From Escherichia phage EK99P-1, in the sequence record NC_024783.1: DNA of 44,332 nucleotides; one strand, given 5' to 3'. Below are positions 3,545 to 39,841 of this stretch, piece after piece. The notes beneath the pieces are model-generated. The model was not told the origin of the DNA, searched no databases, and saw only the letters and a program-made list of their open reading frames with translations. The position numbers were made by a program, and so were the translations under genes. Within the stretch, counting starts at the first letter, position 1. The number at the start of each line of letters is the position of its first letter.

Positions 3545-4631
3545 TCAATATATGGCGGATCGAATGATTCGCCGACACATCTTCACCCAGCGCCTGAGTA
3601 ATGACCAGGCGCGGCGGGTGCTGGCTATGTGGGAGAAGTTCCGGCCCACGTTACTGGGTAAGCTGACCGAGTTACTTGATGGCAAAAAGTCCATGAACAA
3701 CAAGGCACTTACCACTCTGTTAACGCAACTCGACAAGACCGTCAAAACGGAACTGCGCACCGAGTTTAAGGCGTTGGCTGAAAGCCTTCAGGAGTTCGCC
3801 GACACCGAGGCCGATTATCTCGCCGACACATTAACGGCAGCGATCCAGCCGGTGGTCGCCGTACCTGCGGTCGAGGTGGTTGGCGTAGTGACCGGTGCTC
3901 AGATCGCAGCTACTGCAATGAAAAACCCGTTCCAGGGTAACACCATGATGCAGTGGCCCGATTCACTTTCCGAGTGGACCAGGACGCAGATCGGCAATCA
4001 GGTGCGCGCCGGATTCATCCAGGGCAAGCCGACGATGGAAATTATCGCGGATGTGAGGCGCACGCTAGGCGGTCGTAGTGCGCAAGCAATCTCAAGCGTT
4101 GTTAAGTCCGCGGTCAACCACTATGCGGCGACCGCCCGCGAATTAATGGTAAAAGCTAATGACGATATTCTCGAAGGTCGCCAATGGTTGGCTACATTGG
4201 ACACTCATACTTCCCCAATGTGCCAGCTACGCGATCGCCTGTTTTATCCTGTTGACGTCACTCCCGACACCAAAGGCAAGCGCGGCGGGAAAGTGGTGGC
4301 GGGATCACAATATGGCGCTGGACCGGGCAAGCTGCATTATTGCTGCCGTTCGACGGAGACGTGGAAAGTTAAGGGCATGGAAGATTGGCCCAGTGGTAAG
4401 CGTCCGGCACTGAAGCCTGACGCGGGCCGATTGCTGAGTGAGCAGGTCGACGCGCGGACTGATTTCTTCTCATGGGTGCAGCGCCAGCCGCGCCATATCC
4501 TGGAGGAATTATATGGAGTGCAACGCGCCGACCAGATTATGCGCGGCGTGAAAGTGCCGAAGATGTTTACCGATTCTGGCGAACTGATGACTATTGCACA
4601 GCTTAAAAACCGGGGGCTATGGCGTGATTAA
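3528..4631 (+). CDS. head morphogenesis protein (Mu F-like / SPP1 gp7-like minor head protein)
   Basis: 367 aa, overlaps the portal stop, conserved position after portal. Confidence 0.65.
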   Translation: MAKTINQYMADRMIRRHIFTQRLSNDQARRVLAMWEKFRPTLLGKLTELLDGKKSMNNKALTTLLTQLDKTVKTELRTEFKALAESLQEFADTEADYLADTLTAAIQPVVAVPAVEVVGVVTGAQIAATAMKNPFQGNTMMQWPDSLSEWTRTQIGNQVRAGFIQGKPTMEIIADVRRTLGGRSAQAISSVVKSAVNHYAATARELMVKANDDILEGRQWLATLDTHTSPMCQLRDRLFYPVDVTPDTKGKRGGKVVAGSQYGAGPGKLHYCCRSTETWKVKGMEDWPSGKRPALKPDAGRLLSEQVDARTDFFSWVQRQPRHILEELYGVQRADQIMRGVKVPKMFTDSGELMTIAQLKNRGLWRD

Positions 4632-4953
4632 GTATGCAGCTATTGGACTGGTTATAGGTCTGGCGGTAGGATTCTGGCTAGGTGACTCCTATCGCGCTGG
4701 CGTAGTGGCGGAGGCGGCGCAAGAAGCGCAAGCCAAAGCCCAACGGCAGCAAACTAAAGTTGTTGAGCGATCCGTGCAGGCCGAACAAGCCCGCGACGTA
4801 GAATACCGGACTATCACGAAAGAGGTTGTGAAATATGTTACGCGTCCTAACCGTCCTGATTGCAGTTTTGATGCTGAGCGCGTGCGGATCAAGCAGCGTG
4901 CCGTTGATGCCGCTAACGGAGTCGGCACTGCGACCGCCGTGCAAGTTCGATAA
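4624..4953 (+). CDS. Rz-like inner-membrane spanin (i-spanin)
   Basis: GTG start with GGGGG RBS. N-terminal TM helix (IKYAAIGLVIGLAVGFWLG), then a Q/A/E-rich helical periplasmic region. Partner lipoprotein ORF embedded in the +1 frame. Confidence 0.7.
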   Translation: MIKYAAIGLVIGLAVGFWLGDSYRAGVVAEAAQEAQAKAQRQQTKVVERSVQAEQARDVEYRTITKEVVKYVTRPNRPDCSFDAERVRIKQRAVDAANGVGTATAVQVR

Positions 4954-6036: not shown

Positions 6037-6078
6037 TTGGTATGCAACCAATATACTGCAACCAATCCACCAATGCAA
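6037..6078 (-). promoter_or_regulatory. sigma70-like promoter for the moron, with downstream palindrome
   Basis: Minus strand: -35 TTGCAT (6073-6078), 17-nt spacer, -10 TATATT (6050-6055), then TTGGT-tgcat-ACCAA (6037-6051). Contains two ATTGGTTGCA boxes. Confidence 0.45.
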
Positions 6079-11326: not shown

Positions 11327-11640
11327 TTGAGGCGGCGCGACGCTTTTATGGCCCGCCGCCACCCTCCGAAGATTTAGCCGCGAGTTTATGGGGCGCGACA
11401 CCTGAAGACGTGTGTCCGCCCGTTGCGCTGTGGCCCGACAACGCGAAGGTAGTCGCAGTCTTCACAGATTGCTCCACGCAATGGCGTACCGGATTTGGCG
11501 GGGCATACGGCATCGACTACGGCGTACTGGAATGGTTATTTAAGATGCACGGCATCGAAAACGCGCAACGTGCGTTTAAAGATATCAAGCTAATGGAACG
11601 CGTTGCGCTGGATGAAATGGCGCGGCAGAACCCCGCATAA
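10964..11640 (+). CDS. tail assembly chaperone GT fusion (programmed -1 frameshift product)
   Basis: The -1 frame is open from 11317 to the stop at 11640. A slip at 11317-11323 joins G to the downstream frame. Confidence 0.6.
11317..11323 (+). other. slippery heptamer A_AAA_AAC for -1 ribosomal frameshift
   Basis: gaA AAA AAC TAA at the end of G. The -1 frame continues open for 105 codons. Confidence 0.6.
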
Positions 11641-11956
11641 CGAAGCGGGACAGGCGGGAAGTACCGTTTTGTCCCGCCTCTGTAAAACCGCATATCTAAT
11701 CACTTTCATTGCATAAACTCAAAGCGGGACAGGCGGGACGTCCCGTTTTGTCACGCCCTGTAAATGTGCATACCTATGCAGATTTCGTGCATAAACCAAA
11801 CGGGACAGAAAGCGGGACAAACAAGAGGCGGGACAAAGCGGGACAGCACCCCGTCCCAGCCAGTGCTGCCGCGGTTTTCAGCCGATCGGGACAGCGGGAC
11901 AGCACCCCAGTCTTTCAGACTAGACGGGGGTCAGTGGCCCCCCTCGTCTGAGACTG
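11641..11956 (+). repeat. GCGGGACA iteron region with terminal long hairpin (copy A, extended)
   Basis: About 10 GGGAC(A) units on one strand, several short GGGAC..GTCCC palindromes. The last 169 bp (11788-11956) are repeated at 39166-39334. Confidence 0.8.
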
Positions 11957-12024
11957 AATAAGGTTTGTTTTGAAATCGCTGATACAATATCCATCGGCAA
12001 CTGCATAAAAAAGGGGACTGCATA

Positions 12025-14667
12025 ATGGCAGATCAGGCAGCAGGCATCACGCTAAAGGCTGATGTTGCACAAATCAGAACGGCAAATACTGTGCTGGACT
12101 CCTTCGCACAGAAATCCGAGAACACAGAAAACAAGGTTAAGAAATTAAACGACACCCTCGGCAAATCCAAAAAGGTGACGAGTGACGCCGCGGGCGGAAT
12201 GGAGAAGCTGGCGACTGAATCGCAGCGCGCCGCCGATGGCATGACGAAACAGGAGCGACTTGCCAACAGGTTAGGCATGTCGACCAAAAACCTGGGCTTT
12301 GCCTCGCGTAACGCCGCATTCCAGTTACAGGATATCGCAGTTACGCTTGAGATGGGGATGCCTGTTCACCGCGTCATGCTTCAGCAGTTACCGCAGCTAA
12401 CTGGGGCGTTTGGCGGACTGGGAAACACGCTGCGTTATGTCGTCGGCACACTCGGCCCGTTAGGGATTGGCATCGCTGCATTAACGGCAACGCTCGGCGT
12501 AGGGGTGGCAATTACGACCCGCGCAGAGAACCAGGTGGCGGCGCTTAATAAGACGCTGGCGCTGTCCGGTAATATTTCAGGCCTGACAGCTAACCAGATC
12601 CTTGTGCTGTCCGAGAACGCCGAGCGCATGGGCGGGTCATTTCGCAAGACGCGTGACACAATCCAGGCGCTGGCGGCGGCGGGTGTGAAAGCGGGTGGTG
12701 ACTTTGGCGCATTGGCTAAGGTAGTGAATGACTTTGCGAAGGTGTCCAGCCAGCCGATCGAGGATGTGGTGGCGGCGGTGGCGAAGCTGTCAACCGACCC
12801 GGTAGGCGGCTTGCGCGCACTGGCGGATAAGTATCACGTCGTAAACGAAGCGCAGATCCAGCAGGTACAGTCGCTGGTTGATGCGGGTCGTGAGACAGAC
12901 GCAGTTGCGTTGGCTAACAAAACAGCCGCTGCGTCGTTCACCAGCATGACCAATGAGATCAAGGCGAACATGGGCACGCTTGAGCGGTCTATGAACGTCG
13001 TCACATCGGCAGCTAAATCGATGTGGGACGCTATCCTGGATGTGGGCCGCGCGCAGTCCTCCAATGAGTCCGAGATGAAAGCGCGCGAATCACTACAGCG
13101 CATGACCACGGCATACTATGCCGAGATGAAAGCGGTAAACGCTGCCGGTGGGGTAATGACCGAAGCGCAGAAAGCGCGTATTAACATGCTTTACAGCGAA
13201 CTGGTCGCCCAGGAAAAAGTAGTGGCGTCGCTCACCCTGCGTAACCGTGCGGAGCGAGACAACGCCCGCGCCGCGGACGAATCAGCAAAGGCGAACGAGG
13301 AGGCCAACCGCACCGCTCGCGACCGCGCCGCGTTCGAGAAGGAGTACGCAACTAACGCGAAGAAGCGCGCTGACGAGATCGCCCGCCTCAATTTGCTGAA
13401 TAAGCGCGGCGTTATCGACGAGAAAGAGCTTGCTGAGGCGGTGAAGCAGGTAAACGAGCGTTACAAAGACCCCGCCCCGAAGAAGGCCGCGGCTGTTCGC
13501 GTGGATGCCGGTATGAAAATGCTGGAAGTCGCACGGAGCGAACTGGCCCAGCTTCGAGAATCCGGCAAGCAGATCGAAGCCAACGCATCGACGCAGACCC
13601 GAACGCAACGCGCTCAAGCGGCCTTAAACAAGCTGATCGCGGATAATGAGCAGTTAATCGCCGCAAGCAAAGAAAGAGCGCTAACGGCAGCCGAAAAGCA
13701 GCAATTAGTCGAGTTCGGGCGCGTGAAGGAAGTCCGCGAGCAGATCGTCGAAGAAGCCAAATTGCTGGACGCGAAAGAGAAGCAGGTTAAGGCGCACGCG
13801 CAGATCGATGCCTTCGTTAAGAACCAGAACGCCGAACTAAAAGCCACCGCCGCGGGCTATGCCCTTTCCACTCGCGAAGCGGCAAACCTGCGCGAAGAAT
13901 TGCAGCTAATCGACCGCCTGAAGCGTGTAGGCGCTAACGATACCGATATCGACAAGGCGGTGTCTAAGCTGCGAGAAGTGCAGGAAGCACAGACCGGCGC
14001 TAACGCCTCGTTATGGGATGGATTCAGTCGCGGGCTTAAGGATAGCGTGGATGAGATGGGTAACGGATATACGCAGATGGCGTCTCTCACGAAATTCACA
14101 TTCAGCGCTATGCAGGACACGATGAACGAGTTTTTCGAGACTGGCAAGCTGAACGCAAAGGATATGGTTAAGTCCATCCTGAGCGAATTAATCAAGCTGG
14201 CTACCTCGCAGGCGTTCAAGTCCATCGTTAGCGCTTTCGGTGGTGACGGCGGCAAAAACGGATTGTTCGGCGCTATCTTCTCTGGCCTTACTAAGAATGC
14301 GGACGGCGGAGCGTACGCAGGAGGCAATCTCGCGGCCTATTCGGGGAAAGTGGTAAGCCAGCCTACCTTTTTCAGTTATGGCGTCCAGGCGTTCGCTAAG
14401 GGCGCTGGGTTGATGGGTGAGGCTGGACCCGAGGCCATCATGCCACTGAAGCGCGGGCCGGACGGGAAACTGGGCGTTGCCGCGTCTGGCGCAGGCGGTG
14501 GTATGGTCGTGACGACTAACGTTTACACGGGGACTGGTAAAACGGATACCAGTGTCAGCGGGCCGGACCCCCGTACTGCGCAAGCGTTCGGCAAGCAAAT
14601 AACCGAGGCGGTGAAGGCCGAGATCGTGAAAGCTACGAAACCGGGTGGAGTACTTTACAAACGATGA
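12025..14667 (+). CDS. tail tape measure protein
   Basis: 880 aa, Ala- and coiled-coil-rich with a Gly-rich C-terminal part, directly after the G/GT chaperone genes. Confidence 0.85.
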   Translation: MADQAAGITLKADVAQIRTANTVLDSFAQKSENTENKVKKLNDTLGKSKKVTSDAAGGMEKLATESQRAADGMTKQERLANRLGMSTKNLGFASRNAAFQLQDIAVTLEMGMPVHRVMLQQLPQLTGAFGGLGNTLRYVVGTLGPLGIGIAALTATLGVGVAITTRAENQVAALNKTLALSGNISGLTANQILVLSENAERMGGSFRKTRDTIQALAAAGVKAGGDFGALAKVVNDFAKVSSQPIEDVVAAVAKLSTDPVGGLRALADKYHVVNEAQIQQVQSLVDAGRETDAVALANKTAAASFTSMTNEIKANMGTLERSMNVVTSAAKSMWDAILDVGRAQSSNESEMKARESLQRMTTAYYAEMKAVNAAGGVMTEAQKARINMLYSELVAQEKVVASLTLRNRAERDNARAADESAKANEEANRTARDRAAFEKEYATNAKKRADEIARLNLLNKRGVIDEKELAEAVKQVNERYKDPAPKKAAAVRVDAGMKMLEVARSELAQLRESGKQIEANASTQTRTQRAQAALNKLIADNEQLIAASKERALTAAEKQQLVEFGRVKEVREQIVEEAKLLDAKEKQVKAHAQIDAFVKNQNAELKATAAGYALSTREAANLREELQLIDRLKRVGANDTDIDKAVSKLREVQEAQTGANASLWDGFSRGLKDSVDEMGNGYTQMASLTKFTFSAMQDTMNEFFETGKLNAKDMVKSILSELIKLATSQAFKSIVSAFGGDGGKNGLFGAIFSGLTKNADGGAYAGGNLAAYSGKVVSQPTFFSYGVQAFAKGAGLMGEAGPEAIMPLKRGPDGKLGVAASGAGGGMVVTTNVYTGTGKTDTSVSGPDPRTAQAFGKQITEAVKAEIVKATKPGGVLYKR

Positions 14668-22128: not shown

Positions 22129-22157
22129 AGTATTACACCGCTCAGCCAGGATTGCAA
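22129..22157 (-). promoter_or_regulatory. putative promoter for the lipoprotein-RBP operon
   Basis: Minus strand: ATTGGTTGCAA box with TTGCAA as -35, 17-nt spacer, weak -10 AATACT. Confidence 0.35.
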
Positions 22158-22178
22158 CCAATTTATGAGGATTCAGCT

Positions 22179-23840
22179 ATGGCAGCGGGTACACTATCCG
22201 TAACGAATAACAGCAAGGCGGTTGCCGGGGTAGGCACGACGTTCACCGCGTTTAAAGCTGGCGACTTCTTAACGCTGGTGGTGGGGCAAGTCCCTTACAC
22301 TGTCGCGATTGCATCCGTAGAAAGCGATACCGCGCTTACGCTGGTGCTTCCGTTCGACGGTCCCACGGCAACCGGCCTTGCCTGGGATGGCGTTGCGCGC
22401 GATACCATGTCACTGGCGACGATGGGCGTTACCGTACAGGCCCAGAAAGCGTTGCGATTGATGATCGCCGATGAAAACAACTGGCGTGCGATCTTCGGAG
22501 ACGAAGAAGAAGTTACGGTAACGCTGCCGAACGGGCAGGTTATGCAGGGTATGTCGTGGGGCTACCTGTCGCGATTACTGAAGGAAGTTGACCCCGTTGA
22601 AATGCGCGACCTGCAACAACAAGCCGCCGCATCGGAAGCCGCCGCACTAGCATCACGTAACGAGGCTGAAGGATTCAAGAACGAGACGGCAGGCATTCGC
22701 GACGCCACCGATCAGATTAAGACGGATACGCAGGCAATCCACGACGCCACCAACGCCATCAAGACGCAAACCAACCAGATTAAGACAGATACTGGCGCTA
22801 TTCGCGACGAGGCCAACCAGATTAAGACGGATACCGGGGTTATTCGCGACGAGGCCAATACCGCGAAGATTGACGCGCAAACCGCCAGCACTGCCGCGCA
22901 GGGATTTCGCGATCAGGCCGAAGAATGGGCGCGAAGCGTAAACGCCGATAATCTGCTAACTAAAACCGGCAACCTGGCAGGCATTGCAGACGCTGCGGCA
23001 GCGCGCACCAATTTAGGCTTAGGTACTGTCGCCACGTTAAACACTGTTCCTGTCGCTAATGGCGGTACAGGTGCGACCACGGCTGCAGCAGCGCGCACCA
23101 ATTTAGGCTTAGGTACGACTCAGGTTGTATCTTTCGGGTCAGTGGCGTTGACTAACGTTGTTACGGGCGCTTACGCTAGCGGTTTTGGGGCAACCGTAGC
23201 TGGCGGCAGTTTTGGGGAACAGTATACCAACCCCACAGCAATTGCTGTAGATAGCACCGCTGTCGAAGGTTACATTACGTTAATGAGGGTTACAATACCC
23301 GGTGTGGGTAACCCGGGTGGCATGGACTGCTTCATGTACGCTAATGGTACGTCGTTCTTCAGAATAAATACCGGTGTTGCAAATTACGTGTTTAACAGTA
23401 CTGGGGTAGCCACCGCTACACAGTGGTCGAGTACATCTGACGAGCGAATCGAAGAGGATATTGCACGGATTGATAACCCGCTCGAAAAAATGAAGCGTAT
23501 CAAAGGTGTGTCATGGCGACTGAAGACAAACGGTAGTATCGGTCACGGTTTCATCGCTCAGGATGTGGAGCAAGATTTCCCTAGCGCTGTCAATCCGTTA
23601 CAAGATATGCAATTGTCCGACGGTAGTGTCGTAAAAAACGTCAAGTCTGTTGACACGTACGGCGTGGCCGCAGCTTTGCATCATGAAGCTATTCTCGCAC
23701 TCATGGCTAAAATAGAAGCACTGGAGGCCACCATGCGAGCGTTGCCGGATACGATGAAACAGGTGGAGGAGTTGAAAGCCGCACAAGCGGGCTTTCGTAA
23801 TATTCCTTTCCGTCCACTTCCACTAAGGGCCAATCGTTAA
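22179..23840 (+). CDS. side tail fibre with C-terminal intramolecular chaperone (peptidase S74-like) domain
   Basis: 553 aa from the ATG at 22179 (RBS GAGGA). Repeated IKTDT and AARTNLGLGT motifs. C-terminal DERIEEDI...KRIKGV...HGFIAQDVEQ...AILALMAKIEALE resembles the endosialidase-type chaperone. Confidence 0.7.
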   Translation: MAAGTLSVTNNSKAVAGVGTTFTAFKAGDFLTLVVGQVPYTVAIASVESDTALTLVLPFDGPTATGLAWDGVARDTMSLATMGVTVQAQKALRLMIADENNWRAIFGDEEEVTVTLPNGQVMQGMSWGYLSRLLKEVDPVEMRDLQQQAAASEAAALASRNEAEGFKNETAGIRDATDQIKTDTQAIHDATNAIKTQTNQIKTDTGAIRDEANQIKTDTGVIRDEANTAKIDAQTASTAAQGFRDQAEEWARSVNADNLLTKTGNLAGIADAAAARTNLGLGTVATLNTVPVANGGTGATTAAAARTNLGLGTTQVVSFGSVALTNVVTGAYASGFGATVAGGSFGEQYTNPTAIAVDSTAVEGYITLMRVTIPGVGNPGGMDCFMYANGTSFFRINTGVANYVFNSTGVATATQWSSTSDERIEEDIARIDNPLEKMKRIKGVSWRLKTNGSIGHGFIAQDVEQDFPSAVNPLQDMQLSDGSVVKNVKSVDTYGVAAALHHEAILALMAKIEALEATMRALPDTMKQVEELKAAQAGFRNIPFRPLPLRANR

Positions 23841-26844: not shown

Positions 26845-26878
26845 AATATAATGCAACCAATATAATTACGCAACCAAT
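26845..26878 (-). promoter_or_regulatory. putative sigma70-like promoter with two boxes
   Basis: Minus strand: ATTGGTTGCGT (-35 TTGCGT), 17-nt spacer containing a second ATTGGTTGCA, -10 TATATT. Confidence 0.45.
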
Positions 26879-32605: not shown

Positions 32606-33331
32606 TTAACGGCGGCGACGTTTACGCGGTGCTTTGTCTTCGTCGTCGTCGTCCTCATCTTCGTCATCGCGTGGCTTACGACGTTTACGAGGTTTTTTAT
32701 CTTCATCATCGTCATCGCGACGTTTTGACTTTTTGGACTTGCGCGGCTTGTCATCTTCATCATCGTCGCCCAGGTCCTCGTCTGAGCAAGAAGACCCGCC
32801 ACCTCCGAAGGCTTCGCCGTCTTCACGGAATCGCAGACCCAGCAAGCCAGCCCCGAGGCCCTTGCCGTTGGTATTGTTCCATGCCCAAATATCAAGGGAC
32901 ACGTTGCAATAACAACCGGAGTAGATCTCCTGGCCTTCAATCTCGTCGCCTTCTACGGTCAGACCTTGTTCAGTCTGCTTCTCGCCGAGTGACGTTTGAA
33001 TGATAGGCTGTTTGAACGATTTGGCGTTGATATACAACATGCCTTCGAATTCTTCTGTCACTTCGTCGCGCTCGTCACCGTCGCGAACTGCGCATTCCTT
33101 AGAATCCTGGGCGTAGTGGCGGTCCATCCACTTATCGGCATTCTTCTCGGATTTCAGCTTATCGGTGAGCACTGCGCGCGCTGCCGCTTCCACTTTGTCC
33201 ACCTGCGGATCTTCTTTATCCAGAAGAATCACGGCACGGTATGCCGGTTTTTGTCCATCCTGTTTAGGGGTATCACGTTCCCAGATTTTCAGGAAGCATA
33301 CGCGCACATTTTTCAGGTTGACTTTAGCCAT
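32606..33331 (-). CDS. ssDNA-binding-like protein (DUF2815-like) with hyper-charged C-terminal tail
   Basis: Start taken at the ATG at 33331 (MAKVNLKNV, RBS GAGGA). C-terminal ~60 aa alternate D/E blocks with K/R blocks. Confidence 0.5.
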   Translation of the reverse strand: MAKVNLKNVRVCFLKIWERDTPKQDGQKPAYRAVILLDKEDPQVDKVEAAARAVLTDKLKSEKNADKWMDRHYAQDSKECAVRDGDERDEVTEEFEGMLYINAKSFKQPIIQTSLGEKQTEQGLTVEGDEIEGQEIYSGCYCNVSLDIWAWNNTNGKGLGAGLLGLRFREDGEAFGGGGSSCSDEDLGDDDEDDKPRKSKKSKRRDDDDEDKKPRKRRKPRDDEDEDDDDEDKAPRKRRRR

Positions 33332-33664: not shown

Positions 33665-35087
33665 TGCTTAAGTCCTCGTCAGTAGCTTCCGACCACGCAG
33701 GGCGCGGGTCGTCGATTGGGGCTAACACCGGTTTGGCAGGTGCGCGCGTGATTTTATCACACAGCTTAGCCCACACTTTCGGTTTTTCGTCCTTCAGTAC
33801 CTTCTCGGCATCCGTAGGGCTGAGCAATGTTTCTTTGTACATCACATCGCGCTTGATCCGGGCCTTCGTGAAGATTTCAATCACTTCGCTCTCGTCCGCC
33901 CACTTGCGGATCCCTTCCTTACCGGCAACCATCTTGAGGCCCAGCGATTCGCCGTCGCCCGCCATTACCGCCTTAAATACCGCGGACTCGATAGCTTTGA
34001 TGTGCTGGCGCATTGCGTCCAGGCCTTCATAAGCCTTGCGCAGTTCAGCCGCGCTCATAGCGCCGGGGGCCGCTTCTTTCTTGCCACGCTTCGCACGTCG
34101 CGCCGCCTTCCTGGCTTCACGCGCCATATTGCGATCGTGGTTGGCGCATTCTTCCTCGGTCGCAATAATCACGTCGTCGCCCAGGTCTTCGTCAGTTGCC
34201 GTGGTTGGTGTCATCGTATCGATTGCGGCCTTCGCGCGGGCACTACACTGATCCGCAAATCGGCACCACTGACACGCATCAACGCTGGGCCGGAAGTCTG
34301 CGCGAGTGAGTCCCTTCTTGCCTCGGGAATATGCCTCCAGTGCGGAAATAGCGCGCTTGGATGCAAACTTCGCGAATATCTCCAGTGCTTCTACCGAAAT
34401 ATCCCACTCCGACGCCCCGCCGCAATACGGCTGGAAGATAACCAGGCGAACGGTCGTAATGTCGTACATAGTTTGCAGCTTGCGCAGCAGGCCGAGCGCG
34501 TACAACATAAGCTGTTTGTTCTCTTTCGCCTCGACCTTATGCCGCCCGGTCTTCAGGTCGCCAACAATCAGCATGTACGTTCCATCGGTCTTTTTCATGA
34601 CCATGACCATATCGGCAGTACCGAACGTTTTAATCCGGTTGCCGTCGATCTCGTAGCCTGAGTGAAGGACGCGGGTCAGATCGGCGCGCATCTCAAGCTG
34701 GACAAACTCCGCCACCTCGAGGAGTGGTCGCCAGTGGTCGATGTACGCGTCGCACTGTTTCACCATGTCGTCATTGACCAGTACGCCGCCTTTCGGCGCT
34801 TTCGGATGTGCCTTCACTGGCCCCTTGCCTTCGTTCTCGACGTAGCTCCCTTTATACGTCTTTGCGGTTATCAGCTTTTCACCGGCGATAATGCGGTTTA
34901 GCACCACTTCCGATACGGTGTGCATACTCGTACCGTTAATCGCGGCTTGCCCGGATTCGTTCGGGATATCTTTTTCTACCACCAGGGCGGCAGGGCAACC
35001 CATCCATTTTTTAGCACCGGATGGCCCGAGTAATGAGTGTTCCGTATTGCTGCCGGATTGCGTCTTACGTTTTGGTTTAATCGCCAT
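33657..35087 (-). CDS. PD-(D/E)XK exonuclease-like protein (Cas4-like / DUF2800-like) with C-terminal Cys cluster
   Basis: 476 aa. N-terminal LLGPSGAKKWMGCPA pattern and CQWCRFADQCS cysteine cluster. Confidence 0.5.
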   Translation of the reverse strand: MAIKPKRKTQSGSNTEHSLLGPSGAKKWMGCPAALVVEKDIPNESGQAAINGTSMHTVSEVVLNRIIAGEKLITAKTYKGSYVENEGKGPVKAHPKAPKGGVLVNDDMVKQCDAYIDHWRPLLEVAEFVQLEMRADLTRVLHSGYEIDGNRIKTFGTADMVMVMKKTDGTYMLIVGDLKTGRHKVEAKENKQLMLYALGLLRKLQTMYDITTVRLVIFQPYCGGASEWDISVEALEIFAKFASKRAISALEAYSRGKKGLTRADFRPSVDACQWCRFADQCSARAKAAIDTMTPTTATDEDLGDDVIIATEEECANHDRNMAREARKAARRAKRGKKEAAPGAMSAAELRKAYEGLDAMRQHIKAIESAVFKAVMAGDGESLGLKMVAGKEGIRKWADESEVIEIFTKARIKRDVMYKETLLSPTDAEKVLKDEKPKVWAKLCDKITRAPAKPVLAPIDDPRPAWSEATDEDLSNE

Positions 35088-35275
35088 TATTCCACCCTTG
35101 AAAACTGAGCAATGTAATATTCATGTTTAACCCCAGCCCGCTTCGCGGCTTCGTTCATGGTAGCCGCCAAACCTCTGGCTTGAGTCCAGCAGCAATTCCA
35201 GTTCTGATTCATAACGATTTCCGGTTGCTCATCGCCGGTAATACGGCAACGAAATAAAACAAAGAATATAGCCAT
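35087..35275 (-). CDS. hypothetical protein
   Basis: 62 aa, adjacent to the exonuclease gene. Confidence 0.35.
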   Translation of the reverse strand: MAIFFVLFRCRITGDEQPEIVMNQNWNCCWTQARGLAATMNEAAKRAGVKHEYYIAQFSRVE

Positions 35276-35527
35276 TTATTTTGTCTCCCAGCGGTCAATT
35301 GTTTTTGCTTCGGATGCAACTGCGAAGCGAACATATTCCAGATTGGAATCCGCCCAAATATAAAAGTCGGGGTTAGTAAAGGTGGTGCGCTTAATTTGCG
35401 CGGGGGTGTTACGGCGTTTATCTATTACGGCAACGCGTGACTGAAAGCTGCCGATGCGTTCGAATAGCCAATAGTACGGGCGCTGGTCGCGGGAGTCCAC
35501 CGCCTCGATTAGCGTGAAGCGTGCCAT
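35276..35527 (-). CDS. hypothetical protein
   Basis: 83 aa, RBS GAGGA. Confidence 0.45.
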   Translation of the reverse strand: MARFTLIEAVDSRDQRPYYWLFERIGSFQSRVAVIDKRRNTPAQIKRTTFTNPDFYIWADSNLEYVRFAVASEAKTIDRWETK

Positions 35528-35540
35528 TGTCTCGTCCTCT

Positions 35541-35567
35541 AAAAAGAGGCCCGCAGATTAGCGGGCC
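35541..35567 (-). terminator. rho-independent terminator after the first early-left gene
   Basis: On the minus strand GGCCCGC-taatct-GCGGGCC followed by TCTTTTT. Confidence 0.55.
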
Positions 35568-35575
35568 GGATAATA

Positions 35576-36061
35576 TTAATCTTCCAGTTCGAAATAAGTT
35601 TCGACGATTTCTTTAAGTTCTGTGTGGAAGTCTTCGACGTCTTCATCTTCCAGCTTGGCGATTGATTTGATCTCGAACGATTCCAGCAGGTCGTCAAATT
35701 CGTCGTTCGCGTCGTCGTCGTCACCACCAGCGATAATAGCGGCATATTGTTTGATTTCGTCGCGCATCTCAGCCAGCGGATCGGCATCTTTCTTGCCTTT
35801 GCCTTTCGCCGGGGCTTTTTTACCCTTAGCTGGTTTTACGTCATCAGCGTCATCGTCGTCGTCATCTTCTACGACTTCTTTTTTGGCTTTCGCCGGAGCT
35901 TCGTCGTCAGCGTCGTCATCTTCTACGACTTCTTTTTTCGCCTTAGACGGCTTCTTGTCTTCCTGCTTGCCAACGGCAGCGCCAACGGTTTCATAATGCT
36001 TAGCGATGGTTTCCAGTGCTACTACGCCGCGAGTAATCAGGTTTACGATTTGTTCAAACAT
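35576..36061 (-). CDS. highly acidic repeat protein (possible DNA mimic / anti-restriction candidate)
   Basis: 161 aa, runs of D/E, internal duplication AKKEVVEDDDADDEAPAK / AKKEVVEDDDDDDADDVKPAK. First gene downstream of the leftward early promoter. Confidence 0.5.
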   Translation of the reverse strand: MFEQIVNLITRGVVALETIAKHYETVGAAVGKQEDKKPSKAKKEVVEDDDADDEAPAKAKKEVVEDDDDDDADDVKPAKGKKAPAKGKGKKDADPLAEMRDEIKQYAAIIAGGDDDDANDEFDDLLESFEIKSIAKLEDEDVEDFHTELKEIVETYFELED

Positions 36062-36259
36062 GTTTTATATCTCCGATTGGTTAAGTTTAGGTGTCGACCA
36101 TTAACCTCGTCGGTGGCCTTAACATAGTGCCTGGTTACGCGTTCTCCCGTTCGGGTAGTGGACCAGGTTATATAATCACGGTTGGGAATCCTGACACTTC
36201 GATCCGGCCCCTGCGTTGCCCCTCTCCAGTTTGCGTCCTGCATCCTGTCGACGGAGTGA

Positions 36260-36288
36260 ATATTAGATTGGTTGCAGAATGGAGTCAA
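36260..36288 (-). promoter_or_regulatory. leftward early promoter (PL-like)
   Basis: Minus strand: TTGACT (-35), 17-nt spacer containing TGCAACCAAT, TAATAT (-10). About 190 nt of leader before the ATG at 36061. Confidence 0.5.
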
Positions 36289-36299
36289 CAACTAATTTC

Positions 36300-36334
36300 A
36301 AAAAAAAAAGCGCCGAGGCAAAATGCGACGGCGC
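36300..36334 (-). terminator. minus-strand intrinsic terminator between the divergent promoters
   Basis: Plus strand A10 then GCGCCG-13 nt-CGGCGC. On the minus strand this is hairpin plus U10. Confidence 0.45.
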
Positions 36335-36406
36335 TAACCAATAAGAGACAATGAGACGGGAATTATTATTACACGCGTGCGCGCCCGTTTCAATATATCA
36401 AAGGAG

Positions 36407-36452
36407 TTGACACCCTGCTGTTTTAGGTGTAGTTTCGTTGGTCATTAACCAA
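36407..36452 (+). promoter_or_regulatory. rightward early promoter (PR-like) with operator palindrome
   Basis: TTGACA (36407-36412), 17-nt spacer, TAGTTT (36430-36435), then TTGGT-catta-ACCAA (36438-36452) before the RBS. Confidence 0.55.
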
Positions 36453-36466
36453 CCGGGGACAGAAAA

Positions 36467-36796
36467 ATGAATATCAACGACGCAATCGAAATGTTAACTA
36501 AGACTGTTTGCAGTGAAACAAGCCGGTCCTGGGCGTATACCGATGCCGTGGGGGCGGTGCTATTTGAAATCGAACGCCTGCGACTCACCGAAAAAGAATT
36601 GCGCGCGAAGCTGGAATTACTCAACGGTACGGCAGCCAGCAAGCTGCAAAAGCACAATGAAGAAATGGAAGAATACAAAAAGCAGGTTATCCGTCTACGT
36701 GAGGAAGGTAAATCCTGGGCTATGATCGCCGAGCTAACCGGAATCAACCAGAGCACTGTGCGCTCCTGGGTACGCAATAATAAAACTTCCAAATAA
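36467..36796 (+). CDS. small HTH DNA-binding protein (candidate early regulator)
   Basis: 109 aa. C-terminal helix-turn-helix GKSWAMIAELTGINQSTVRSWV. First gene after PR. Confidence 0.55.
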   Translation: MNINDAIEMLTKTVCSETSRSWAYTDAVGAVLFEIERLRLTEKELRAKLELLNGTAASKLQKHNEEMEEYKKQVIRLREEGKSWAMIAELTGINQSTVRSWVRNNKTSK

Positions 36797-36806
36797 GGCT
36801 ACGACC

Positions 36807-39071
36807 ATGAGTTTAATTAAATTCGCCGTAACAAGACCCGCTAAAAAAGGCGAAAAAGCCAGGGCGGAAAACCTCCAGATGACCACCGATGAATTTTTCG
36901 AATTTATCAAAGATGCGAAAGAAATCTCATCGGTGCATATCAACAAGACGGAGGATAAAGCCGAGTATGCGCGCCGCAAGCGTAAGGCCGATGGCATCGT
37001 GGCATATACCAGTGACGGACTTCGCCGCAAGACCAGTGCGGTGGACCGCTCGATCCTGTTCTTTGATATTGACCGCACCGACACCCGCACCCTACGCCGC
37101 TGCCGTAAGGCGTTCATTGACGCGGGTCTGGAACACGTATTTCACACCACAACCGGCGACCGTCACCCACTGAAAGGCGGCACGCGTTGCGCCCGTTTCC
37201 TGGTGTTAACTGACAAGCCTGTACCGGCGGAAGACCTGGGCCGCGCCCAGTATGCCTTGTTAGCCCAACTGGGTCTGTCCGATGTGGACTTCGACGATTG
37301 CACGAAAGACACAAACCGCCTTATGTACCTGCCACACCAGCAATCTGTCATTAAATGCCACTACGGCAAGCGCGCCCGCGTCCGTCGTCTGCTCCGCCTG
37401 GCGGACAGGCTGGGAGTTGAGAAAGAGGAAGTGCGCCGCGAACTAACCCAGGGTGATGACGGCATGGCGGACGGTATTCTGGATTGGTGCTTCCAGGCAG
37501 GATTCGAACCGCTGTCGTCCGGTCGTGGTTATGAAGTTCCATGCCCGAACGAACATCTGCATAGTGGCGAAGGGTCCACCGCTATCATGGTTAAGGATGG
37601 CGAGATCCGTTTCAAGTGTATGCACACCGGCAACGAGTGTTGCTCGGAACTGAATAGACACCAGCACCTGGCGCTACGTCTCATCGGGATACCGGACCAC
37701 CTGAACGTCGAGCCGCACAACATGTCCCGTAAGCAAATCGCCGCCATCCTCCCAGGGCTGGACGACGAGGAAGTCGAATCCTTATATGAACATATTGTTG
37801 ATGCGGTTGGCGACGGCGAAGAATACGGCGTGTGCACCGATGCGGATCTGGATAACGAGCCGGTTGCGCTGTTCAGCAAGCACGACCCGATTATCGAGGG
37901 GTTGATTAACTTTAAATCAACTTGGTATATGGCTGGCGAGTCGAACATCGGTAAGTCTTTCTACGTGCTGGGGCAAATGGGTGCGGTTGCCGCGGGGATT
38001 CCGTTCGGTGGCGCGAAGGTAGTCCAGTCTCATTGCTTCTATTTCGATGCGGAAGGTGGCGAAGCCTCTAACCAGCGTAAGGAAGCATTGCAGATCAAAT
38101 ATGAGCACGATCTCGACAAGCTGCACATTATCGACCTGCAAACTCGCGGCTGGGATATCACCAGCAAATCCGGCTTGCGTGAAGTTATCAGCTTTATCAA
38201 CCGCACCGCTAACGGCGAACCGGTTGGCCTGGTGGCATTCGACTCCCTCAACCAGACTGTTGCGTTGCGGTCCGCCGATTCTAAACCGTTCGACGAGAAC
38301 AACGCCAGCGATATGGGCGAAGTGGTCAAAGCGCTGAAGGCCATTGCGGAAAATACAGGCGGCAGTGCGGGCGTCATCCACCACCCGGCGAAAGGTGCAA
38401 ACGGCAGCAGATCTCCCCGTGGGTCCGGCGCGCTGCATGGTGCTGTCGATTCCGCGTTCTTCCTGGAACAGCCGGACGACAATCAGCCTGGTCAATTGAA
38501 CCTGTATCACGAAAAGGCACGTAACGGCATCAAGCAAGCGCCGCGCGGCTTCGTCCTGCTCAAGTGCAAAGTTAAGGTAGATCTCCGCAAGTCCGAGGCG
38601 TTCGAATCGCACCAGTCCACCAGCACCGGGCCTGACTTCGGCGATGTGGTTGCCGGTTGGGACGTCAAGCCGATCGCATCCACGCCACGCGACGAGACTC
38701 TGTATCTCGTACCGGTCGCCCTGGCACCGTTCGCCATCGAACAGGCGAAGGCGGCGGGCAAAGCAGCAGTTAAGGACGAGAATGCCGCAGGACCGCGCAA
38801 CGAAAAAGAGAAAGTGCTTTATGCGGCGCTGGAAAAACTGATGGAAGATAACCCGGACCATACCGGATTCAGTAAATCGGCAATCGTCCGCCAGGCGGGA
38901 TTGGCAAAAGGTGGCACATCGACGAAGGCAATAGACGATATGGTGGAGCGCGGCGTGCTAGGTTTTTATACAGATCCGCATACCGGGGCCATCTATGGGT
39001 CGTCGAATATCGTCATAAAAACGAATATACCCATCACGCTTTCGGCGACCGATGACGACCTTAAAGATTAA
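36807..39071 (+). CDS. DNA primase / replicative ATPase (primase-helicase-like)
   Basis: 754 aa. N-terminal primase-like region and central P-loop GESNIGKS. Large early replication protein. Confidence 0.55.
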   Translation: MSLIKFAVTRPAKKGEKARAENLQMTTDEFFEFIKDAKEISSVHINKTEDKAEYARRKRKADGIVAYTSDGLRRKTSAVDRSILFFDIDRTDTRTLRRCRKAFIDAGLEHVFHTTTGDRHPLKGGTRCARFLVLTDKPVPAEDLGRAQYALLAQLGLSDVDFDDCTKDTNRLMYLPHQQSVIKCHYGKRARVRRLLRLADRLGVEKEEVRRELTQGDDGMADGILDWCFQAGFEPLSSGRGYEVPCPNEHLHSGEGSTAIMVKDGEIRFKCMHTGNECCSELNRHQHLALRLIGIPDHLNVEPHNMSRKQIAAILPGLDDEEVESLYEHIVDAVGDGEEYGVCTDADLDNEPVALFSKHDPIIEGLINFKSTWYMAGESNIGKSFYVLGQMGAVAAGIPFGGAKVVQSHCFYFDAEGGEASNQRKEALQIKYEHDLDKLHIIDLQTRGWDITSKSGLREVISFINRTANGEPVGLVAFDSLNQTVALRSADSKPFDENNASDMGEVVKALKAIAENTGGSAGVIHHPAKGANGSRSPRGSGALHGAVDSAFFLEQPDDNQPGQLNLYHEKARNGIKQAPRGFVLLKCKVKVDLRKSEAFESHQSTSTGPDFGDVVAGWDVKPIASTPRDETLYLVPVALAPFAIEQAKAAGKAAVKDENAAGPRNEKEKVLYAALEKLMEDNPDHTGFSKSAIVRQAGLAKGGTSTKAIDDMVERGVLGFYTDPHTGAIYGSSNIVIKTNIPITLSATDDDLKD

Positions 39072-39165
39072 ATTTTGCGCGCATTGGTTGCCATTTTGGG
39101 TGTTTTTATCTGGTCGTATTGGTTGCCGTGTAGTGTAGATATAATGAATAGTTATGCAATAAAAC

Positions 39166-39334
39166 TGCATAAACCAAACGGGACAGAAAGCGGGACAAAC
39201 AAGGGGCGGGACAAAGCGGGACAGCACCCCCGTCCCGCCCCGGATGGCGCGGCCTGGAGAGGAGCGGGACAGCGGGACAGCACCCCAGTCTTTCAGACTA
39301 GACGGGGGTCAGCGGCCCCCCTCGTCTGAGACTG
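39166..39334 (+). repeat. GCGGGACA iteron plus long hairpin element (copy B)
   Basis: 169 bp directly after the primase gene. Both flanks near-identical to 11788-11956, 34-bp central core divergent, one loop substitution in the hairpin. Confidence 0.8.
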
Positions 39335-39493
39335 CATAAAATCCGGGATTGCAAAATACACGGCAGCATGTTGCGGATTGCGGTCGTCGCTGAACTAGGC
39401 AACCAATGCGAGATGCGGAATGGTGGGTGGAAAATGCAGTTTGCAGTCACAGCAGATAGCGATCAACTTTTTCATGCGCGTGATTAATATTGG

Positions 39494-39535
39494 TTGCATT
39501 CAATCCGGCACCCGGCTATATTGGTTGCACACCAA
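39494..39535 (+). promoter_or_regulatory. sigma70-like promoter with downstream palindrome
   Basis: ATTGGTTGCAT (-35 TTGCAT, 39494-39499), 17-nt spacer, TATATT (39517-39522), then TTGGT-tgcac-ACCAA (39521-39535) and RBS GAGGA. Confidence 0.5.
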
Positions 39536-39550
39536 CATGAGGACTGAACA

Positions 39551-39841
39551 ATGAGAGCGTTAATCTGGAATTACACAATGGCAGTGGCAAAACAGGTCGA
39601 AGCGAGATATACCAACGGCAGAGCACCGTGGGAGCGCCTGGTAGCTCCGACCTGGTTTGCGATCATGGATGCGACCGCGGGCATGGAAGACCCCGAGCCG
39701 TTGCGCGCGGCTATCAGGGCTTACGCGCTTGCATTTGCCCGTGAACGCCTGGCCTATCGCTTCGGTATTGGCGATAAGGCAGTGACAAACGTCGCCCGGA
39801 TTAAAGCCCAGCGCGAACTATTCTCCCAGCTTGCGAAATAA
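39551..39841 (+). CDS. hypothetical protein
   Basis: 96 aa, RBS GAGGA, first gene after the promoter. Confidence 0.5.
   Translation: MRALIWNYTMAVAKQVEARYTNGRAPWERLVAPTWFAIMDATAGMEDPEPLRAAIRAYALAFARERLAYRFGIGDKAVTNVARIKAQRELFSQLAK

Follow-up and report, generated by a model that had tools for sequence, protein, structure and literature searches.

A candidate replication origin just 3' of the primase-helicase gene of Escherichia phage EK99P-1

The oriV of RSF1010 and the IncQ plasmids combines iterons (20 bp) with ssi hairpins and is served by the RepA helicase together with RepB' and RepC. In satellite phage P4, 8-bp type I iterons are reportedly present at two loci, ori and crr, both of which are said to be needed in cis. 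The alpha protein of P4 is primase and hexameric helicase in one polypeptide, and with a winged helix at its C-terminus it binds the origin repeats (PMC4234260, PMC2777425). The origin of PICIs is made of iterons and directly follows the 3' end of the pri-rep gene, and allelic Rep variants are found with matching origins (PMC6092414). The origin of pRN1 is a stem-loop (~100 nt), essential in cis, which is located just 3' of a primase-helicase-winged-helix gene (PMC4234260).

Here we describe a repeat element in a comparable position in phage EK99P-1 (NC_024783.1), which is most likely a new example of this known design and not a new kind of element. The window that was analysed, 44,332 bp in length, is a complete Dhillonvirus genome (HK578/SSL-2009a/SO-1 group, E. 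coli siphophages) and has the sequence of IMG/VR contig UViG_2706795331. Few E. coli siphophages are isolated more commonly than Dhillonviruses, which are used for therapy cocktails, as part of the BASEL collection and to screen defence systems. A literature search for a replication origin of Dhillonvirus or Guernseyvirinae found no paper.

Position and anatomy of the repeat element

The open reading frame of the primase-helicase ends at 39071 and copy B of the element begins 94 nt past the stop, in agreement with the initial annotation, which had placed an iteron element ~95 bp behind this gene. The repeat word GCGGGACA occurs 16 times in the window compared to 2.2 expected occurrences, a count that none of 100 shuffles attained, and 12 of the 16 fall in two loci, regions A and B. 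Copy A (11788-11961) and copy B (39166-39339), which make up repeat family D1, lie 27,378 bp apart and are 89% identical over a gap-free alignment; both are co-oriented with transcription and located at operon junctions. Their homology reaches ~20 nt further upstream, as GTG(A/C)ATAnnTATGCA-N7-TGCATAAA, and has its 3' limit at 39340. All five occurrences of TGCATAAA in the window are in regions A and B. On the plus strand of copy B, CGGGAC starts at 39179, 39191, 39207, 39217, 39265 and 39273, with an inverted copy at 39232, giving six direct cores and one inverted core in total (Table 1). The repeats are far above chance. The unit is not a long iteron but a core of 7-9 bp with irregular spacing (12, 16, 10 and 8 nt), and this irregularity, unlike the helically phased iterons of many plasmids, counts against an origin.

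Table 1. Coordinates of the element and its neighbouring features in the window
Feature	Position	Strand	Remarks
109-aa HTH protein gene	36467..36796	+	Just upstream of primase; Pfam HTH_23 and Sigma70_r4_2
754-aa primase-helicase gene	36807..39071	+	Candidate initiator
Coding part for C-terminal winged-helix domain (aa ~665-740)	38799..39026	+	Proposed iteron reader; fold prediction
AT-rich spacer	39072..39165	+	38-39% GC; holds two ATTGGTTGCC boxes, TATAAT and GAATAGTTATGCA
Two ATTGGTTGCC boxes	39083-39091, 39118-39126	+	In AT-rich spacer
TATAAT	39140-39145	+	In AT-rich spacer
GAATAGTTATGCA	39146-39158	+	In AT-rich spacer
Inverted repeat TTATGCA-N7-TGCATAA	39152..39172		5' edge of element; kept in both copies across 15 genomes
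Iteron block 1	39179..39224	+	Four direct CGGGACA cores, spacing 12, 16, 10 nt
Inverted iteron core	39232..39237	-	GTCCCG on + strand
Middle segment	39238..39263		Copy-type-specific (B type CCGGATGGCGCGGC, A type CAGTGCTGCCGCGG); spacer ~26 nt
Iteron block 2	39264..39281	+	Two direct cores, spacing 8 nt (spacing-9 allele exists)
49-nt imperfect palindrome/hairpin	39286..39334		CAGTCTTTCAGACTAGACGGGGG-loop-CCCCCCTCGTCTGAGACTG; folding; arms invariant, loop varies
Closing 3' TGCATAAA motif	39333..39340	+	
ACGGCAGCA motif downstream of element	39360..39368	+	Conserved in related lineages examined
Two ATTGGTTGCA boxes over weak promoter for gene at 39551	39489..39528	+	TTGCAT 39494-39499, 17 nt, TATATT 39517-39522; by eye
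ATTGGTTGC(A/C) boxes	6044-6066, 22154, 24955, 26853-26878, 29827, 36267, 39083, 39118, 39399, 39489, 39520, 40039		Intergenic
Region A leader	11643..11787	+	Two extra 79-nt tandem units (family D7), each GCGGGACAGGCGGGA...TGTCCCGCC, ending TGCATAAA; carries further cores
Copy A of element	11788..11961	+	Between DUF1799 tail-chaperone gene (11410-11640) and tape-measure gene (12025-14667)

The initial annotation had also described an AT-richer stretch, boxes and a promoter behind copy B. We found the most AT-rich sequence, with 38-39% GC at 39050-39199 compared to ~55% for the genome, mainly upstream of the array, the downstream side having 45-46% GC. This stretch also houses promoter/operator boxes, and it is short and merely moderately AT-rich, a second point against an origin. 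Two copies of GAATAGTTATGCA, a sequence of this spacer, also stand behind the primase gene in Cornellvirus FSL SP-031. Host DnaA boxes are present in many, though not all, iteron-type origins and are not required for phages that encode a helicase; two boxes of the form TTWTNCACA were found in the window, neither near the element.

The boxes do follow copy B, but they fail as a signature of an origin, since ATTGGTTGC(A/C) boxes stand on both sides of the element and in intergenic positions throughout the genome. There are 14 exact boxes in the window and 26 at one mismatch or fewer compared to 11.8 expected, and box pairs overlap promoters at the -35 and the start region; ATTGGTTGC is a promoter/operator motif of the whole genome and is not specific to the origin. 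Other lineages have different boxes (GTTGGCAGC in contig L039 and TTGGCCGC in L041). As for the promoter, a sigma-70 consensus scan called none in 38900-39700 and a consensus promoter scan gave nothing at the element; a weak promoter was recognised by eye at 39494-39522. The ACGGCAGCA motif downstream of the element occurs eight times in the window compared to 0.8 expected (others at 4743, 38401, 40980 and 42037 on the plus strand, and at 4341 and 20976 on the minus strand). Its form (A)ACGGCAGC(A/G) is kept downstream of the element in L005, L006, L039, L040 and L041, and the motif also stands after the second repeat cluster of Klebsiella phage VLCpiS11a, which is described below. Between the element and the next promoter there is a possible 17-codon mini-ORF (MQFAVTADSDQLFHARD; 39434-39487, plus strand) with a GGTGG-type ribosome-binding site, and its frame stays open, albeit with changed amino acids, in SO-1, LM40P1 and Ioannina.

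The hairpin that closes the element could be taken as the core of a structured RNA, with the element forming part of the primase and tail-operon transcripts and acting in antitermination, processing or stability, or as a GGA protein sponge. In favour of such an RNA, both copies lie on the transcribed strand, the hairpin arms are strictly conserved, and folding of the plus strand is somewhat stronger than that of shuffled sequences (z -2.25 and -2.13), the minus strand giving z -0.98. However, an Rfam scan of the window gave no match at gathering score, and a scan of both regions at E up to 10 gave chance-level matches only. In addition, a covariation test with eight diverged hairpins returned one compensatory pair, which may point to conservation of the sequence more than of the pairing, and the hairpin lacks the T-run of a terminator. 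We consider an RNA element improbable, and the orientation of the repeats in relatives (see below) also speaks against it. A consensus terminator scan found none at the hairpin, which is followed by CATAAAATCC, and an intrinsic terminator was rejected on this basis. A CsrA-type GGA sponge RNA, a pac site and a DGR template/variable repeat pair were also considered and rejected.

Other repeats were observed elsewhere in the window. GTC/GAC-rich runs (families D2, D3, D6 and D9) at 32616-32770 and 35690-35950 are located in minus-strand ORFs, where they encode aspartate-rich, highly acidic stretches; these could be DNA-mimic-like or disordered acidic proteins. The 562-aa ORF at 22152-23840 contains a 42-nt unit three times (two in tandem) and a 35-nt repeat 90 nt apart (22708-22858 and 22992-23116), which make up a repeated module of what is probably a tail-fibre protein.

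Repeat words of related phages and their candidate reader

Homologues of the primase-helicase at 42-49% identity were found in Guernseyvirinae and in metagenomic phages. In nine further lineages with a homologous primase, a repeat array follows the gene and the repeat word varies by lineage. The gene is followed by a non-coding gap of 300-650 bp that contains, in this order, short repeats, a hairpin and ACGGCAGC (L005, L006, L007, L039, L040, L041, L042 and L043), and in L044 the contig stops within the repeat array after the primase gene. The hairpin of the related lineages is long, G-rich/C-rich and placed after the repeats (the L044 contig ends earlier). The word is GCGGGACA in Dhillonvirus and L007 and GGGGAGA in Salmonella phage FSL SP-031 (six direct, one inverted). 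Klebsiella phage VLCpiS11a and contig L041 share the word TTGCGAG, which is present in both orientations, L040 has TTCCGCACA/TGTGCGGAA pairs and L039 has GGGATCA-N-TGATCCC pairs. That the words occur in both orientations or as palindromic pairs favours recognition as double-stranded DNA and not as RNA, which also speaks against the transcript element considered above. Kagunavirus Golestan encodes a homologous primase (33% identity) with a different layout, having no gap or array after the gene, and this exception counts against an origin at that position. In the Golestan genome (L038), a (CTCA)n microsatellite (37801-37830) and several hairpins were observed in a 474-bp gap between divergent early operons.

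Sister lineages in which primase identity is 67-70% retain the entire scaffold of copy B, comprising the ATTGGTTGCC boxes, GAATAnnTATGCA-N7-TGxATAAA (TATGCA-N7-TGxATAAA), the number and order of the repeats, and the hairpin. On this same scaffold all cores, including the inverted one, are exchanged to GTGTGGCA in L043 and L044 and to GTGTGCCA in L042, with the inverted core reading TGCCACAC or GCACAC; L007 retains GCGGGACA. The three words have the common frame G-N-G-N-G-N-C-A, and beyond these same-scaffold words, five further repeat words are found in more distant lineages. When viral contigs were scanned for GTGTGGCANGTGTGGCA, the 98 that matched were unrelated and none was a sister Dhillonvirus. 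Tandem GTGTGGCA arrays with 4-6 copies within 200 bp were also seen in many unrelated IMG/VR phage contigs (L068, L107, L061 and others), and short-word arrays like these may be a widespread kind of phage protein-binding site.

A protein with a predicted sequence-specific DNA-binding domain is encoded next to the array, in the form of the primase-helicase itself, whose C-terminus is predicted to be a winged helix and is the least conserved part of the protein. Pfam and fold searches showed that the helicase is of the RecA-fold (AAA_25/RepA-like). For the N-terminal primase fold there was no Pfam match at E up to 10 and fold searches matched the helicase domain only; for the C-terminal part Pfam at E up to 10 gave nothing, and when the primase and its profile were searched against PDB sequences, nothing came up beyond a marginal match to RepA and a spurious one to BurrH. 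Residues in helices 2 and 3 of the winged helix differ in step with the iteron word (KS..T(S/N)T(K/T)A, RR..SSTKP and AR..STSKP). The corresponding signatures are GFSKSAI(V/L)(R/K)QAG..GGT(S/N)T(K/T)AI for GCGGGACA, GFSRRAIL..AG..GGSSTKPIN for GTGTGGCA and GFSARQIMLNAG..GGSTSKPVY for GTGTGCCA, and the two TTGCGAG lineages have a common signature of their own. Iterons and candidate initiator were found to change together, with three words on one scaffold and three winged-helix signatures, a pattern that is confounded with phylogeny. From this co-variation, in a comparison of the primase and the small HTH protein in which word and phylogeny are confounded, we infer that the winged helix of the primase reads the iterons. 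That the arrays are sites for this winged helix is probable, and we hold it somewhat more firmly than the assignment of an origin discussed below.

The small HTH protein, a DNA-binding protein from the same operon, might be proposed to read the GGGACA cores in place of the primase. Its HTH segment, however, is identical in five close lineages with differing iterons, being the same whether the word is GCGGGACA, GTGTGGCA or GTGTGCCA, and the ATTGGTTGC boxes are likewise unchanged. An HTH that is invariant across lineages with differing iterons is a poor candidate for the iteron reader, and we judge this assignment very unlikely. Invariant boxes together with an invariant HTH in the sister lineages suggest a regulator/operator pair, so that the 109-aa protein probably pairs with the ATTGGTTGC boxes and not with the iterons, as far as a co-variation confounded with phylogeny can indicate.

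The second copy and the conservation of both copies

The CGGGAC copies of region A comprise nine direct and two inverted ones. When an 801-bp query around copy B was used, 157 GenBank phage records matched at 80-95% identity, and the element is present in all 157 of the GenBank Dhillonvirus records having a match, at 355 places in total and at 2-4 places in each of the 60 listed records. In the 13 genomes from which both copies were recovered, they occupy the same two loci. An alignment was made of 30 copies, drawn from 13 IMG/VR genomes (A and B) and from two others (B only). Neither the CGGGACA cores nor the two hairpin arms vary in it, and the spacers and the hairpin loop do. The middle segment is 53% identical between A and B, compared to 78-87% among orthologous copies. 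At the last two repeats and in the loop, A and B have shuffled alleles with each other, and A-B identity is slightly higher within a genome (0.904) than between genomes (0.883; 14 of 2000 permutations), indicating that the copies exchange sequence and are kept under the same constraints. One-nucleotide indels between copies rule out a coding constraint on the element, and the 'hypothetical proteins' that some GenBank Dhillonvirus records (e.g. L004, 387-773) annotate over it, on either strand, are therefore probably spurious.

The contigs L160 and L161 (GGGACA type) contain 10-12 CGGGAC cores and the same hairpin before the tape-measure gene. In L162, copy A has GTGTGCCA cores and there is no CGGGAC in the 5.4-kb locus; L162 and L042 are from the same sample and their contigs total ~44.5 kb. 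Copy A and copy B thus change repeat word together (L162/L042), which requires selection by one shared reader. The junction of the DUF1799 chaperone and tape-measure genes is a hot spot for inserted material: one or two small opposite-strand genes with their own ATTGGTTGC boxes were observed there, adjoining copy A (L160 3174-3554, L161 3174-3922 and L162 3162-3335).

Two copies that have the same 8-mer flank and exchange alleles, as the identities above indicate, could also be regarded as selfish or passive repeats, that is, a functionless MITE-like insertion or recombination relic that was duplicated into the tail operon, with TGCATAAA as its target-site duplication. Such repeats would not be expected to keep two fixed positions (in the 13 genomes with both copies, and with 2-4 places in each listed record), to preserve cores and hairpin arms unchanged alongside drifting spacers, or to switch their word in both copies at once, which needs selection. 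In addition, TGCATAAA is the same at both sites and is part of the conserved element in other lineages. We regard a functionless repeat as highly improbable. The target-site duplication of a mobile element was itself rejected because the flanking TGCATAAA is conserved in other lineages.

In distant relatives there is no gap before the tape-measure gene and copy A is absent there. In Klebsiella phage VLCpiS11a (L005), another, homologous cluster of TTGCGAG occupies 35684-35908, where it separates the head-morphogenesis gene from that of the Rz spanin and ends in AACGGCAGCAA, and FSL SP-031 has a single repeat cluster, suggesting that the primase-adjacent site is constant and that the second site is frequent but movable. 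According to a table in PMC3025963, Edwardsiella phage eiAU has a gap ahead of its tape-measure gene.

The location of the second site bears on whether the arrays do a job other than initiation. Bound by the primase winged helix or by another lineage-specific phage protein, they might serve in autoregulation of the replication operon, as a roadblock or insulator between operons, in DNA looping or genome organisation, or in the control of late (tail, lysis) units that start just downstream. This would suit their place at operon junctions in the direction of transcription, copy A being directly upstream of the tape-measure gene and the second Klebsiella cluster upstream of the Rz/scaffold/capsid genes, as well as the conserved ACGGCAGCA motif and promoter-like sequence after the element, and it would explain two copies more naturally than a single origin does. 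Nevertheless, the array is tightly tied to the 3' end of the primase gene in ten lineages, and the second site is the one that changes place or is missing (one cluster in FSL SP-031), which suggests that the function of the array is linked to the replication protein. The array, the AT-rich stretch and the hairpin also make up the standard origin triad, and a helicase with its own sequence-specific domain plainly needs a loading site. Overall, we find a role outside initiation possible but unlikely.

Origin reading and comparison with known replicons

On balance, we favour the reading that copy B is a cis loading site, and hence probably an origin, for the phage's own primase-helicase. The initial annotation had proposed copy B as a candidate origin and, in that case, copy A as a possible second origin or a site where the same protein has a different role, and the comparative results lend weight to this, namely the layout in nine other lineages, the co-variation of word and winged helix, and the joint switch of A and B; its supporting details fared less well, as the boxes are a separate matter and the AT-rich stretch lies mainly upstream. 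We count in favour of the origin the palindromic and both-orientation words, the word switching, the adjacency to the primase, the AT-rich stretch and the precedents, and to the points against it given above, which include the confounding with phylogeny and the N-terminal region in which no primase fold was recognised, must be added the conserved second copy within a late structural operon, which is unusual for an origin.

In the proposed mechanism, the 7-9 bp GCGGGACA cores would be the iterons, bound by the C-terminal winged helix of the 754-aa protein. Several protein molecules would occupy the array, upon which the RepA-like hexameric helicase would assemble. The adjoining AT-rich stretch, the 49-nt palindrome, or both, would be the site of duplex opening and of the first primer, and the palindrome, if extruded as a hairpin, could resemble an ssi signal or the stem-loop of pRN1. 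The array of copy A would be bound by the same protein too, and would serve as a second origin or, like crr of P4, as a partner of copy B in cis. That binding leads to initiation, and what the hairpin and copy A each do, is inferred here.

The cumulative GC-skew minimum lies at ~35-36 kb, 3 kb from the element, which also counts against an origin there, though the skew simply tracks gene orientation. It coincides with the divergent intergenic region at 36040-36470, between the minus-strand replication genes and the HTH/primase operon, which is the least GC-rich part of the genome (the 2-kb stretch 35001-37000 has 48% GC). In this region we observed an A10 run beside a GCGCCG...CGGCGC hairpin, and no iteron array.

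More tentatively, the two copies may not be redundant. Copy A could be an obligatory cis partner (a crr-like enhancer acting via protein looping) or a second helicase-loading site in the late operon, in which case the phage would have a two-site origin whose specificity is re-programmed by a few winged-helix residues and a three-position change in an 8-bp word (G-N-G-N-G-N-C-A). If this rather speculative proposal is true, co-infecting relatives would show an incompatibility-like isolation of replication. The analysis provides an origin candidate, a candidate reader domain and a natural matched series of iterons and winged helices (GCGGGACA, GTGTGGCA and GTGTGCCA), which amounts to a natural experiment on the DNA recognition code. 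In phage engineering, removing or moving the gap before the tape-measure gene, or swapping primase alleles, may break replication.

The same two loci are annotated as repeat_regions A and B in the record of Sodalis phage SO-1 (GQ502199), the visible text of which describes them as 'consisting of direct, inverted and palindromic repeat sequences' that are mutually similar. As far as that text goes, the annotation is descriptive only and is without a repeat word, its switching or a winged-helix analysis, and a literature search found no paper analysing SO-1 repeat regions A and B or placing the origin of this group. With RSF1010 the phage shares iterons, a hairpin and a RepA-like helicase; unlike RSF1010, it would fuse three functions in one protein, and the ssi role of its hairpin is a proposal. 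PICI/SaPI origins differ from the phage locus in that their two iteron sets flank an AT-rich region at a single locus, whereas the AT-rich stretch of the phage is on one side. The phage also has a long hairpin after the array and a distant second copy, and is virulent and not a satellite.

The order of a small DNA-binding repressor gene and then a primase-helicase-winged-helix gene, as for pRN1 ORF904 (and phage replicons such as BIP-1), is matched here, as is the conserved stem-loop immediately 3' of the gene, which in the phage is the hairpin at 39286-39334. In contrast, pRN1 has no iterons and an SF3 helicase, while the phage hairpin is 49 nt in length and preceded by the iteron array; a pRN1-type Prim-pol (AEP) domain was not detected, the N-terminal domain of the phage protein being without a Pfam match at E up to 10. 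P4 alpha, too, differs in the enzyme, combining an SF3 helicase with a DnaG-type primase, whereas the phage helicase is of the RecA-fold AAA_25/RepA-like type, and PDB sequence searches gave no P4 alpha match. Since its helicase is RecA-fold and not SF3, the phage protein stands outside the P4 and pRN1 families. In the arrangement of its sites the phage resembles P4, having 8-bp cores at two separate loci, A and B, as P4 has at ori and crr, and by analogy the system may work like P4 alpha with ori and crr.
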